A stretch of 64,000 nt of DNA from Okamejei kenojei (GCA_035221665.1 CM069152.1:15128001-15192000), one strand, 5' to 3'. Shown: positions 540 to 63,400, numbered from the stretch's first letter. Notes: generated by a model not told the origin, from the sequence alone. Numbers and translations: made by a program.

Positions 540-1457
540 TAGATCCAATTTGCCACTCTTCACGTATCTTTACTAGTTTGTTGAAACCCTTGCTGAAATC
601 CATGCATGCTCCATCCAATGGCATGTTGGCCTTTATAACACGAGGAGTCGAGTATAGGAGCAAAGAGGTCCTTCTACAGTTGTACAGAGCCCTAGTGAGA
701 CCACACCTGGAGTATTGTGTGCAGTTTTGGTCCCCTAATTTGAGGAAGGACATTCTTGCTATTGAGGGAGTGCAGCGTAGGTTTACAAGGTTAATTCACG
801 GGATGGCGGGACTGTCATATGCTGAGCGAATGGAGCGTCTGGGCTTGTACACTCTGGAGTTTAGAAGGATGAGAGAGAATCTTATTGAAACATATAAGAT
901 TATTAATTACACGCTAGAGGCAGGAAACATGTTCCCGATTTTGGGGGAGTCCCAAACCAGGGGCCACAGTTTAAGAATAAGGGGTAAGCCATTTAGAACA
1001 GAGACGAGGAAACATTTTTTCTCACAGAGAGCTGTGAGTCTGCTTCAGAGGGCTGTGGAGGCCGGTTCTCTGGATACTTTCAAGAGAGAGCTAGACAGGG
1101 CTCATGAAGATATCGGAGTCAGGGTATATGGGGAGAAGGCAGGAACGGGGTACTGATTGGGGATGATCAGCCATGATCTCATTGAATGGCGGTGCTGGCT
1201 CGAAGGGCCGAATGGCCAACTCCTGCACCTATTGTCTAATACATTGTCTTCATCAGTCCTCCTTGTTACCTTGTCGAAGAATTCAGTCAAGTTAGTCAGA
1301 CATGATTAGGGGAGTGTAGGAGTGTGTCAGAAGGGTCTCGACCCAAAACGTCACCCATTCTTTCTCTCTAGGGATGCTGCCTGTCCCCCTGAGTTACTCC
1401 AGCATTTTGTGTCTATAGTCAGAAAAGATTCTCTCTTAACAAACCCACGCTGACTGC
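540..1457 (-). mobile_element. Older CR1 RT fragment split by younger CR1 and PLE insertions
   Basis: Pieces read QRGFVKRE / CLTNLTEFFDKVT / MDFSKGFNKL on the minus strand, matching the CR1 motif QHGF..SCLTNL.EFF...DFSKAFDKV. Confidence 0.7.
615..1238 (+). mobile_element. CR1-clade LINE 3' fragment (RT C-terminus + 3' UTR)
   Basis: ORF reads LYRALVRPHLEYCVQFWSP..RKDILAIEGVQRRFTRLI...TRGHSLRI, typical of CR1 ORF2, then the UTR ...gggccgaatggcc..ctcctgcacct. Confidence 0.92.
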
Positions 1458-1582
1458 CGCTGACACAAAATACTGGAGTAACTCAGTCTGAACAAAGGTC
1501 CTGATCCGAAACGTCACCCATTCCTTCTCTCCAGAGATGCTGTGTGTCCCGCTGAGTTACTCCAGCGTTTGCCGTCTATCTT
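1325..1582. mobile_element. Penelope-like terminal-repeat fragments
   Basis: Two copies of gaagggtctcgacccgaaacgtcacccattccttctctccagagatgctgcctgtcccgctgagttactccagcattttgtgtc-like sequence, plus a short inverted piece at about 1462. Confidence 0.75.
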
Positions 1583-1703
1583 TTAAGGTTTATACTGTTC
1601 CTTTTGATTCCAAAAATTCAGAAGTTGGTGATGACCATTTGAGGTGGACCACCAGGTTTTCCAAAGTATTGGATATTGCTTCCATAAACACGCCACTGCA
1701 ATT

Positions 1704-1993
1704 CTAGTTTAGTTCAGTTTATCATTGTCATGTGCACCGAGGTATAGTGAAAATCTTTGATGCTGTGTGCCATCCAGTCAGCAAAAAGACTATACGTGAT
1801 TACAATCACACTGTCCACAGTTCACAGATAGAGGATGAAGGGAATAATATTTAGTCCAGTAAGCTTTGATTAAAGATAGTCTGAGGGTCTTCTTTGAGGT
1901 GGATGGTAGGTCAGGACCATTCTCTAGTTGGTGATAGGATGGTTCAGTTGTCTCATAACAGCTGGGAAGAAACTGTCCCTAACTCGGGAGGTA
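1704..1993 (-). mobile_element. Rex1/Babar-type LINE 3' UTR
   Basis: Homologous to the sequence that follows Rex1-type ORF remnants at 46790-47218 and 19560-20042; (TAAAC)n-like tail. Confidence 0.6.
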
Positions 1994-2327
1994 ATTTTAA
2001 TCCATTATTGTTCCATTTTAAACCATTGATCAATATTTATTTTCCATCTGAACTGTGAACTTCTGACCTAACCATGGATTTATGAGGAGACTGCCTTAAG
2101 GTAGCTGCTTGCCATGAATAAAGAATGGTGGTAGGGGATAGCACTATTCAATGATTTAGTTTAGTTTAGATTAGTTTAGAGATACAGCGTGGAAACAGGC
2201 CCTTCGGCCCACCGAGTCCGCACCGACCAGCAATACCCACACAGTAACACAAGCCTCACACACTAGGGACAATTTACACTTATACCCAAGTACACAAACC
2301 CAAGCCAATTAACCCACGAACCTGAGG

Positions 2328-2955
2328 TTGACACAAAATGCTGGAATAACTCAGCGGGACAGGTAGCAGCTCTGGAGAGAAGGAATGGGCAATGTTTCGG
2401 GTTGAGACCTTTGTTATCATCTCTTCCCCAGCTAACAATGGACTATTATGGTCTCCAACCTTCCTTGGTCATCAGTTGCCGGCATGGCTTTGTTCTGGAT
2501 TTTCCTTACCTCCAGTTCCCTCCCCTCTATTGGGACAAGCCCTGGCAAGTGATGGGGGGGGGGATTGGGTGGATTAAGTAACACAGGCTGGAGGTAGAAA
2601 GGATGCAAAATAGTGTCAGATAAGGACAGAAGAGGAGTGAAATGTAAAGCCAGAGCGAGAGATATTGGTGGAAGTGGACATGAGATAGGGGAAAGAGGGG
2701 GGAATGAAATGGTACTGAGGGATGAAGGGTCCCGACCCGAAATGTTTCCCATCCATTCCTCACCTGCATCCACCTATCACTTGCCAGGCTTTGTCCCACT
2801 CCCACCTCTCTTTTCCAGCTTTTTCCCCACTACTACAATCAGTCTGAGGAAGGGTCCCCACCCGAAACGCCTCCTATTCTTTTTCGCCAGACCCATTGAG
2901 TTACTCCGACATTTTGTGTCTATCTTCAGCGTGAACCTGCATCTGCAGCTCCACC
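2328..2955. mobile_element. Rearranged Penelope-like fragments in both orientations
   Basis: Terminal repeat on minus at 2328-2410 and on plus at 2715-2955, with PLE 3' UTR pieces (gctaacaatggactattatgggtctcc). Confidence 0.6.
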
Positions 2956-3806
2956 TAATGCAGGTTACTTCCATGGCTGGGTGTCACTGGAGAGGAAGCG
3001 CAAGTGTCCACTCGTTCACCCGAGGTCTCCATAACCTCAGGTTGGGGGGTCTGGACAAAACATGGCTTGGATAAAGACCAAAGCACCCTCTACAGTGCCA
3101 CTCAGATTGCCCCAGAGCAGGTAAAGCGTGGGCTGACTGATGGTGAGCAAAAGTGAGCCGAGCTCAACTTCAGAGGTGAACTGTTTAAATTATATATCCA
3201 CAAACTCACTACAGCTGCCACTTATGACCTTCTCGATGGAGATGAACGGTTTGAAATTAATTGTGGTTAAATTACAAGAAATTTGCAATCTGGAGTCATA
3301 CCCAGAATTGATTTGACACTAATCCAATTATTGGATGATATGGTAGAAGTGTTTTAAATTACAAAGAGATGGGATAGAATAGTCAGCAGTAAATTAGATC
3401 GAGTCCTTGTTTTTACAGAACGGCAAGACTGAAAATGGAGTTCACCACGAGTGCAATAAATTGCACGCATTTCTGGTTTGCTTTGGTTTTTTTCACCAGC
3501 CATTCACACTTGTGTTAAGCACTTTCACATTCGGCAAGCACCTACCGACGGCAACCCTGTCTCTGAGTGATGTTTAGTTTTAGGTTAGTTATAGAGAGAC
3601 AGTGTAGAAATAGGCCCCACGGCCCAGCAGGTCTGTGCCGACCATCGATCACCCGTACACTCATTCCATGTTATCTCTCTTTTGCATTCTACACACTAGA
3701 GGCTATTTACAGAAGCCAATTGACCTACAAATCTGCAAGTCTTTGGAATATGGGAGGAAACTAGAGCACCCGGAAAAACGGGGAGATCGTAAAAACTCTG
3801 CATGGA

Positions 3807-61792: not shown

Positions 61793-62040
61793 CACGGTGG
61801 TCCTTACATTTCAGAAAGGACAACTCTGCCAAAAAAACTTGTCCTGCGGGACCAATAAAGACAGGAATTAGGCATCCGTTGTGAGACTAACAACCAACCT
61901 AGAATTTGGAATGAAGCTGGAACGTTAGAAAAAGGCCAGGAAAAAAAAATTGTGCAAACATGAAAAAAATTGTCCATATAATCACAATACATGACAACAC
62001 CTATGGTAATCTGTAATTTATAGCTGAAAAAATGCTTCTC

Positions 62041-62080
62041 TTTATTTATTTAAATTACAGTCTATTAACGTCTTTTATTT
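62041..62080 (-). terminator. Candidate polyadenylation signals (AATAAA) in the HS3ST 3' UTR
   Basis: tttatt at 62041-62050 and about 62074-62079 reads AATAAA on the minus strand, in AT-rich sequence about 90-130 nt downstream of the stop. Confidence 0.3.
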
Positions 62081-62169
62081 TGGAAAGATGATCATAAGTC
62101 TTTAAATAATTCCATCACCAATTTTATCAATAAGGAACCAGTTTTGAGTTCGTCTGGATGGTTTAACAA

Positions 62170-62852
62170 CTAACTGATCTTCTTGGAATTTTCATCCTTT
62201 TCCAATCAAAGTGTTCTCCCGTAATCATAGAAAACAGACGGTGAATGGTCTGTCAAAACTGCCGCCGTCTGTGGATTACATCGGGATCCTAATTTTCGGA
62301 TGAGTTCTCCCCCCTTGGATTTTCCAGGCATCTTGGCATGCCCGCTGTCTCAGGTTTTCTTCAGGCAACGGAAAATCCCTTGGTTTTGTTGAAGTAAAAA
62401 TTTGTTTGTCCGTGACGATCATCTTGAGGCTCAGGAAGACCTGGACTTTTCCCATTTCTCTCCTCCCCCGGGTCAATGATGAGCCTCTCCCCGCTGACGA
62501 AATGGATCTGGGAGAGGGGGAAGAACTGGTGCCAGTTCTCTCACCAGGTGCAAGGCGTAGATTCCCCAATACGGATATGGCGCTCCAAGAGGCGTCGATC
62601 AGGCCCAGGGGCCTGCCGTTCTTGAAGTCCAGCCACCTGCGAAGTCTGTGGGAAATCACGGGTTACTTGACAGTTGTATGGGAAGGGGGTTAAATCCGGA
62701 AATGGCTCTGGTTCACTGGGTTCCTGACCACCACCACCAGCTTGGTGCCCTTTGCCATGGAGAAGATGCGCTTTGGTGCCTCCCTGGTGACGAAGTAACT
62801 GGGCGTTTTCTCCATGGTCAGCTGGCCATCCAATGTCTTCGGCATCAAGCTT
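62170..62852 (-). CDS. HS3ST4: Terminal coding exon of heparan sulfate glucosamine 3-O-sulfotransferase (HS3ST4-like); frameshifted as sequenced
   Basis: A polypyrimidine tract plus AG acceptor (minus strand: tctttcttttgctttcag) ends at 62853. It is followed by [46 protein letters not shown]. Across shifted frames come [38 protein letters not shown] and ITGEHFDW, with a probable TAG at 62170-62172 if one further indel is allowed. [27 protein letters not shown] and PDVIHR favour HS3ST4 over HS3ST2/3/6. The family call is firm; the paralog call is less so. Confidence 0.85.
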
Positions 62853-63044
62853 CTGAAAGCAAAAGAAAGACAGACACTTAAGAACAAAAGGCGATCGTAT
62901 CTCCTCACTCCCTCCAAGCACCTCCCTCCAGTAAATGTATCGTGCCACCGAGAAACCAGGCCATACTTAAAGCACAGACAATATCATTAAATCAGCAGAA
63001 TAACCCAAGCCTGGTTCTTTCTAGGCTCATTGGCAAAAGATTTA

Positions 63045-63400
63045 CATTTTGCACGGGCAGCTTACAATCCAGCGGTACGAATATTGATTTTTCTAACTTC
63101 AAGTAACCCTTGCATTCCCTCTCTCTCCGCCCCTTCCCATCCTAGTCGTTTCACTGTCGTCCTGCTTAGTTTCACTGTTTTTATCCACTAGTTATTACCT
63201 TCTCCACAGCCAACAATGGACCATTGTGGGCTCCACCTGGCCTTGATCATCTGATTGGCCATGATTTGTTCTTTGTACCGTTTCCTATCTCTATTTTCCC
63301 TCTCCCCCGACCCTCAATCTGAAGGAGGGTCTCGACCCGAAACGTCACCTGTTCCTTTGCTCCAGAGATGCTGCCTGAGCCGCTGAGTTACTCTAGCACT
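63045..63400 (+). mobile_element. Penelope-like element 3' end in the HS3ST intron
   Basis: GSLQSSGTNIDFSNFK* (stop at 63104), UTR, and terminal repeat ctgaaggagggtctcgacccgaaacgtc at 63319-63346. Confidence 0.8.

Follow-up and report, generated by a model that had tools for sequence, protein, structure and literature searches.

What produces the many short copies of a hammerhead-bearing repeat that lie in a 64,000-nucleotide stretch of the Okamejei kenojei genome (GCA_035221665.1 CM069152.1:15128001-15192000; the window, by which we mean this whole stretch), and what fixes their ends? The repeat is the terminal segment of a Penelope-like element (PLE). The original prediction saw in its short copies a non-autonomous family bounded by the ribozyme and resembling either short interspersed elements (SINEs) or retrozymes. 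Our analysis points elsewhere: the units are probably PLE terminal segments inserted separately by the element's own reverse transcriptase (RT), through internal priming on uncut RNA followed by run-off at the 5′ end.

Positions in the unit are counted from C3 of the CUGA motif, taken as 0, and the ribozyme is predicted to cut between +27 and +28. A profile built from 11 window copies and applied at E≤0.01 gave 39 matches in the window (35 of them at 20 bits or more) and none in any of five shuffles. All 16 positions listed originally fall in or at a match, and the 25 window copies that reach the 5′ core agree with the figure of about 25 copies. Eighty evenly spaced 10-kb loci (0.8 Mb of the 2.76 Gb genome) contained 318 units. 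Scaled to the whole genome this makes about 1.1 million (0.92-1.28 million by bootstrap), or 3.9% of bases. Most copies lack the ORF, as had been proposed; these random loci contained just 17 ORF ends, 15 of them followed by a sense unit within 400 nt. A 51-nt stretch of one young subfamily (+29 to +79) had 34,173 exact matches genome-wide, against none for the control; the first 100 of these, in the first 7 Mb of contig C1, yielded the 99 distinct copies of our young sample. Separately, about six head-to-tail 66-bp repeats of +20 to +86 form a minisatellite without the hammerhead 5′ core at locus L024 (4961-5442, minus strand).

The 5′ ends of the young copies are concentrated in the 15 nt from -7 to +7 around C3 (the zone), where 59 of 99 begin, or 3.9 per nt. 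Eight others start downstream at +10 to +18 (0.36 per nt over +8 to +29), and 32 extend upstream of -11, reaching beyond -1,500, with eight ends within -8 to -100 (0.09 per nt) and 24 further up. None of the 99 starts at the cut site, +28. With the anchor placed further downstream, 76 of 141 starts fell in the zone, none at +28, one at +26 to +30 and four at +31. Starts defined by cleavage were rejected on these counts, and with them the notion that the ribozyme bounds the units by cutting. In the random loci alone, 15 of 26 young copies start in the zone, and 126 of 201 random, mostly older copies extend less than 10 nt upstream. The young 3′ ends form two groups 35 nt apart, 67 at +87 to +99 (about +92) and 32 at +118 to +139 (about +127), the downstream group corresponding to the known optional tail. 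A shared upstream head was not found: only 7 of 89 short copies have upstream sequence in common with any other, and by eye these seven stretches are other repeats or types of untranslated region (UTR).

Target-site duplications of about 8-16 bp surround solo copies and head-to-head pairs. Among solo copies, duplications of at least 8 bp were detected at 23 of 41 that are short and at 13 of 28 that are long, and at none of the swapped-flank controls, and the 5′ junctions of copies with duplicated flanks often show 1-4 nt of microhomology. Because such duplications flank the short copies, these stubs are primary insertions and not deletion remnants. Together with the concentration of ends in the zone, this bears out the expectation that the copy boundaries are not random truncations. 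Almost no duplications were detected around the old copies of the window. At L203, a stub flanked by its duplication lies within the UTR of a second copy of this family.

Pairs of units are strongly oriented. Of neighbours no more than 30 bp apart in the random loci, 49 pairs are head-to-head, 4 tail-to-tail and 9 direct. A tailed arm was combined with a tail-less one in 28 of the 38 classifiable random head-to-head pairs (p 0.002; 11 pairs with truncated ends were excluded), and 15 of 16 classifiable young pairs have one tailed arm (p 0.0002). Among the 17 unique young pairs, a duplication flanking the whole pair was detected by script in 11, and one partner arm starts at +29, next to the cut site. 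Since one arm is antisense, a head-to-head pair cannot form a hammerhead dimer in cis. Two loci 55 kb apart, L171 and L174, have in common a 235-bp head-to-head unit with identical junction and different flanks. In a search for junction lineages, 40 of 484 candidates were scored, and only two loci matched at 98% or more along almost the entire junction. Many loci have junctions that are alike without being identical, and such junctions may therefore arise afresh.

Further structures built from the unit were observed. At three loci picked by junction (L284, L287 and L293), the first 10-30 nt of the unit are restarted in a stuttered manner, which suggests repeated template jumps at the 5′ boundary. 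On two contigs, an element of about 900 bp (L120 2277-3184 and L155 4092-4953) contains a head-to-head pair with the same junction, then a tandem array grown from the 3′ end of the unit plus TG repeats. A 335-bp composite, 99.4% identical between L176 (1333-1666) and L237 (1441-1775) and differently flanked, joins a non-PLE head with tandem GC-box-like repeats to inverted, rearranged pieces of the leader; it is possibly a small chimeric non-autonomous unit.

How might one mechanism give these ends? The RT of the element would prime inside the uncut RNA and run off the 5′ end of this RNA, which would lie shortly before the hammerhead. If the anole element PAc is a guide, the two 3′ ends may represent two internal priming sites, and priming of both nicked DNA strands, one per site, would produce the asymmetric head-to-head pair. 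An RNA starting at the leader would carry the priming sites within its first 130 nt and give stubs only, and long copies would derive from read-through tandem RNA primed at a downstream leader. The ribozyme would be a conserved passenger in these copies, and would not set their ends.

On reaching the end of a template, above all a capped one, reverse transcriptases append C. Of the 26 copies that end at -2, 20 have a G directly before them (expected 7.9); the share is 14 of 16 among solo and 6 of 10 among paired copies. Long copies were examined among those bearing the ORF start, 22 of 30 of which extend upstream past -26. Thirteen of the 30 run at least 1.6 kb into the ORF, and 12 of these reach the zone; none of the 12 stops there, versus 59 of 91 (Fisher p 1.4e-5). 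Run-off from an RNA end is favoured because of the G excess at the -2 ends and because long copies pass the zone. It appears somewhat more plausible than not that a discrete 5′ end of an RNA, at about -4 to -1, makes the fixed boundary, and this end is most likely a capped start at the conserved CAGT. We favour a start site over a splice-site product. Each has a precedent in the Drosophila virilis Penelope, for which the passages cited describe an internal promoter (PMC2377424) and an intron ending at helix I (PMC4209133).

Several observations weigh against run-off from a discrete RNA end. The 5′ ends are spread over about 10 nt, and at least one of the 59 zone copies (L208) carries the UTR of another subfamily. 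Inspection revealed that 4 of the 16 solo rows in the G count were misfiled (two with UTR, two head-to-head), leaving 10 of 12, and the internal controls for the excess of G are either few (0 of 6) or disturbed by variants between subfamilies (16 of 53, no higher than background). The G excess is restricted to position -3: copies ending at -3 show none (9 G among 27 non-C at -4), and a capped start at the A of CAGT thus fits poorly. Among the 25 ORF-start copies reaching the zone, three begin there, all with short downstream reach. Full-length copies starting at -3, expected from transcripts that pass through the leader, were not seen, so that an added assumption is needed, namely that leader-start RNA gives only stubs. 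Assembled contigs of presumed-RNA runs, eight of the 24 listed, show neither transcript starts nor clean splice joints. Finally, the young sample is limited to the first 7 Mb of one contig, and the tree of units is poorly resolved. A cap G at -4 combined with a start at A-3 was considered as a candidate and was not seen.

The same direct insertion could take place with a boundary other than an RNA end, if the RT stalled or jumped templates at the front of a folded or protein-bound leader. The spread of the ends over about 10 nt and the stuttered restarts at the three junction-picked loci fit this explanation, as does a predicted fold-back of the tailed leader that pairs -3 to +10 with the tail; this fold is, however, no stabler than those of shuffled sequences (z -1.4). 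Against a stall, 0 of 12 long copies stop in the zone, and the added G suggests that copying reaches a template end. We therefore regard stalling as unlikely. Somewhat less credible still is RNA processing at a 3′ splice site, in which a pyrimidine tract and a CAG ending at -2 would leave a processed RNA that begins at T-1, and C added to the cDNA would appear as G at -2 and -3. However much their UTRs differ, all subfamilies indeed keep before the motif a UTR that is rich in pyrimidines and has CAG at its end, the G excess lies exactly at -3 with none at -4, and the D. virilis intron cited above ends at helix I. This explanation has to face the lack of a shared upstream exon (the 7 of 89 short copies mentioned above), duplications that adjoin the copy ends, several copies that reach -4 to -7, and the absence of any GT..AG joint to the site among the joints inspected in contigs.

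That full-length elements are simply truncated at random, the boundary marking where homology between subfamilies ends, is very improbable. The UTRs do differ upstream of -4, which inflates the boundary in old copies, and about a third of the copies are randomly truncated upstream. The pile-up nevertheless persists within one young subfamily compared with its own UTR, at 45-fold the upstream density, and duplications adjoin the ends of zone copies.

Do the short copies, then, beget short copies, as a SINE- or retrozyme-like family would? The defined ends and target-site duplications expected of SINEs are present, the units number about 1.1 million, and the unit common to L171 and L174 has the same junction within different flanks. 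An internal promoter and internal priming sites would make a short copy a self-sufficient template, and non-autonomous PLE derivatives are known (passages of PMC8557442 and bioRxiv 10.64898/2026.07.22.740005). A separate SINE-like lineage was nevertheless not recovered. A tree of 103 random copies, 71 short and 32 long (95 columns, little resolution), shows short and long copies intermixed and with their variants in common: the labels change 26 times versus 27.3 after shuffling, and 158 of 500 shuffles were as clustered. No variant is significantly specific to short copies in the young sample, the oldest clusters include, by eye, members bearing UTR, and the recurrence of junctions in similar, non-identical form indicates that they can form afresh. 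The retrozyme reading fared no better. No copy starts at the cut site, and among the 318 random copies we found 9 irregular direct neighbours within 400 nt and no head-to-tail arrays, a negative that covers 0.8 Mb of 2.76 Gb, so that rare arrays are possible. Because the units are neither tandem nor delimited by cleavage, they do not fit the retrozyme class as it is defined. Taken together, self-propagation of short copies seems to us a poor candidate, and we return to separate insertion from the PLE's own RNA.

The motif of the unit is, from its sequence, a minimal type I hammerhead of a Penelope-like pseudo-long terminal repeat (pLTR). The core CUGANGA, the extra base before stem II, the G10.1-C11.1 pair and the palindromic 15.2-16.2 are all present, and the loopless palindromic stem III proposed originally is in line with the passages cited from Cervera and de la Pena 2014 (PMC4209133). 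Stem II is likewise present; described as 5 bp with a 2-nt loop, it instead closes a 4-nt loop with 4 bp (GGGU/ACCC). The seven multi-member clusters agree in core and stem II, save for CpG-type decay in the oldest, and differ in loop II and at +28 to +45. The statement that individual copies carry core mutations holds throughout the window, where 0 of 35 are fully intact; in the young sample 60 of 99 are intact (60 of the 75 that reach C3); 25 of the 318 random copies have an intact core. As anticipated, stem I is short, with at most 2-3 weak pairs (predicted -0.4 kcal/mol). The suggested comparison with Rfam gave no covariance-model match at E≤5. In the predicted fold of the whole young leader the pairing probability of stem II is about 0, and in a predicted dimer the hammerhead fold has -12.7 kcal/mol versus -19.7 kcal/mol for the best fold; in the monomer the hammerhead is not the best fold either. 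Cutting in vivo, if it occurs, is likely to need protein help or a second molecule. A 2017 paper reportedly deals with PLE hammerheads that cleave as dimers. A metagenome scan for related loci returned one weak locus among 227 candidates.

The parent is, by the sequence of its predicted protein, a young Penelope-like retrotransposon whose domains are of Neptune type. Locus L066, reached by searching with the RT region, encodes an open frame of 1,197 aa with RT and GIY-YIG; Pfam places RVT_1 at 681-851 (E 5e-6) and GIY-YIG at 1101-1134 (E 0.004), both under the curated cut-off. Its homologues carry RT and GIY-YIG at 36-52% identity, the best named protein relative being from a shark (52%). A C-x4-C-x2-C linker finger fits the CX2-5CxxC upstream of GIY-YIG in Neptune/Nematis, and by eye the translation agrees with the description of endonuclease-positive (EN+) PLEs in the passages cited from PMC8557442. 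The hallmarks of EN+ PLEs are found here: an inverted 5′-truncated copy, a one-sided tail of 30-40 bp and a partial tandem forming pLTRs. The partial tandem of L066 spans 898 bp (1651-2547 = 5605-6502) and is 99.8% identical, and the family is hence very young. Several subfamilies have the unit as their common 3′ end, and where a partial tandem exists the unit is also the leader before the ORF, with the ATG at +162. The subfamily UTRs differ (about 100-250 nt), yet converge on CAG at -4 to -2. Residues about 175-470 of L066 form a long proline-rich low-complexity N-terminal stretch that is, by eye, absent from the invertebrate-type homologues. In a predicted Stegostoma protein (P0001), the C-terminus reads into what appears in translation to be the same hammerhead, which suggests that the arrangement of unit and ORF is common to sharks too.

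In the window, the predicted sense linkage to GIY-YIG was recovered for four copies, 201-232 nt behind the stop. The features of the window are as follows, those without a strand being pairs.

1323..1455, plus strand: short tailed unit, about -2 to +130
1478..1585, plus strand: short tail-less unit, with a small inverted piece at 1461-1486
2324..2415, minus strand: short tail-less unit, +3 to +94
2715..2758, plus strand: fragment, hammerhead core only
2835..2956, plus strand: low-scoring unit preceded by about 50 nt that may be UTR
6566..6699, plus strand: short unit, 5′ core degenerate
7194..7391: head-to-head pair of a tailed minus arm, from +28 to +129, and a plus arm from about -3 to +99
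9746..9839, minus strand: older degenerate unit directly downstream of the 9844-9951 copy
9844..10546, minus strand: 5′-truncated element with broken GIY-YIG C-terminus (10172-10546), 3′ UTR and unit (9951-9844); stop 10172 to C3 9940, 232 nt
10428..10511, plus strand: weak internal unit fragment
12664..12847: head-to-head pair, arms +6 to +82 (ends at an N run) and +10 to +129
22856..23092: head-to-head pair of a tailed minus arm (+128) and a tail-less plus arm (+86), the latter with about 19 nt of UTR
30293..30429, minus strand: short tailed unit
32089..32221, minus strand: unit with 24 nt of UTR
32319..32454, plus strand: short tailed unit
35937..36600, minus strand: pieces of a broken GIY-YIG C-terminus from the same element, with no unit detected downstream
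37603..37746, plus strand: short tailed unit
37773..38013: head-to-head pair, arm ends +104 and +131
41774..41983: head-to-head pair, arm ends +114 and +128
44291..44421, plus strand: tailed unit with about 115 nt of upstream UTR
52756..53170, minus strand: 5′-truncated element with ORF end (53170-53090), UTR and tailed unit (52901-52756); stop 53090 to C3 52889, 201 nt
53234..53306, minus strand: unit fragment, +24 to +96
53898..54323, plus strand: 5′-truncated element with ORF end (53898-53966), 225-nt UTR and tailed unit (54179-54323); stop 53966 to C3 54191, 225 nt
54519..54756, plus strand: GIY-YIG fragment joined, with its UTR missing, to a unit beginning at about +1
54863..54990, plus strand: unit with about 64 nt of UTR
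60256..60395, plus strand: old degenerate unit
60684..60907: old head-to-head pair, arm ends +129 and +98
63031..63433, plus strand: 5′-truncated element with ORF end (stop 63104-63106), UTR and unit (63307-63433); stop about 63103 to C3 63319, about 215 nt
63864..63958, plus strand: two tandem downstream fragments without hammerhead core

Pfam gave no match on six window fragments. An open frame at 62690-62983 on the minus strand, without Pfam match, resembles what we take to be an exon of a heparan-sulfate 3-O-sulfotransferase, and part of the window may for this reason be a host gene region. About 4.5 kb at 55510-60100 are very C-rich and of low complexity with N runs, and may be noisy assembly or a degenerate microsatellite. 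Further dispersed families (D4, D6-D10, D12-D16) occur, for example at 2157, 3811, 14041, 26857 and 49059; their heads look tRNA-like and we presume them to be SINEs, accompanied by what we take to be 3′ fragments of the RT of long interspersed elements, such as 494-1156.

Elements of this class have been described before, as have the motif, the tail and the inverted pairs. The pLTR hammerheads of PLEs described in the cited passages of PMC4209133 have the same core, with an extra base between 9 and 10.1, G10.1-C11.1, a palindromic 15.2-16.2 and no helix III loop; they occur mostly as single motifs, "probably related to truncated PLEs", with some close opposite-strand pairs. Helix II is 4 bp here and 7-8 bp in the Schistosoma families, and helix I is about 2 bp here, 4-5 bp in the Schistosoma families and 2 bp in D. 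virilis. The approximately 10^6 units estimated here compare with up to about 9,000 motifs per vertebrate genome in that source, the counting methods being different. The same passages name neither cartilaginous fish nor a fixed 5′ boundary. Our literature search gave neither an account of a fixed 5′ start of short PLE copies nor one of the present family, although Repbase or Dfam entries, supplements and subscription journals may hold one.

The closest mechanistic parallel is the Poseidon element PAc of Anolis, the only PLE reconstituted in vitro according to the cited passages of Frangieh et al. 2024 (PMC11167929). There, as proposed here, the tail is bounded by two internal RT starts that lie downstream of the hammerhead; the RT extends both DNA strands, can do without cleavage and uses mainly uncut RNA. 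PAc belongs to another clade, and its ATG lies in stem II, not at +162. Its strands show no start-site preference in vitro, whereas the pairs here almost always combine a proximal and a distal end. With the insertion units of EN+ PLEs, as the passages of PMC3846280 and PMC8557442 describe them, the present family has in common the partial tandem, the inverted 5′-truncated copy, the one-sided tail of 30-40 bp and duplications of variable length; unlike them, most insertions here are stubs of 90-135 nt with a common 5′ start. The solo pLTRs of Adineta are described as lacking duplications and are ascribed to recombination or deletion, whereas the solo units here have duplications. Non-LTR retrozymes resemble the units in being non-coding, PLE-pLTR-related and equipped with a type I hammerhead (passages of PMC7229834 and bioRxiv 10.64898/2026.07.22.740005). 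They form head-to-tail repeats of about 150-450 bp that give rise to monomers and circles, and the units here are scattered as single or inverted copies whose limits are not set by the cut.

These comparisons carry a caution: copy number and fixed ends are by themselves insufficient to call stubs retrozymes or SINEs. The young family offers an in vivo footprint of two putative priming sites, one per arm, a probably uncut RNA template and a fixed 5′ stop, which gives direct predictions for 5′-end mapping and in vitro assays. More tentatively, most insertions of the element could result from a "strong-stop"-like run-off, in which the RT primes at two sites in the first 130 nt of a capped transcript, on both target strands, and drops off at the cap. 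A stub holds the start site and both priming sites, and could therefore be transcribed and re-copied without a defined 3′ end. If this is true, the hammerhead would play no part in setting the ends of the stubs, and the Penelope element would have a built-in route to an RNA polymerase II SINE-like unit that makes up about 4% of the genome.

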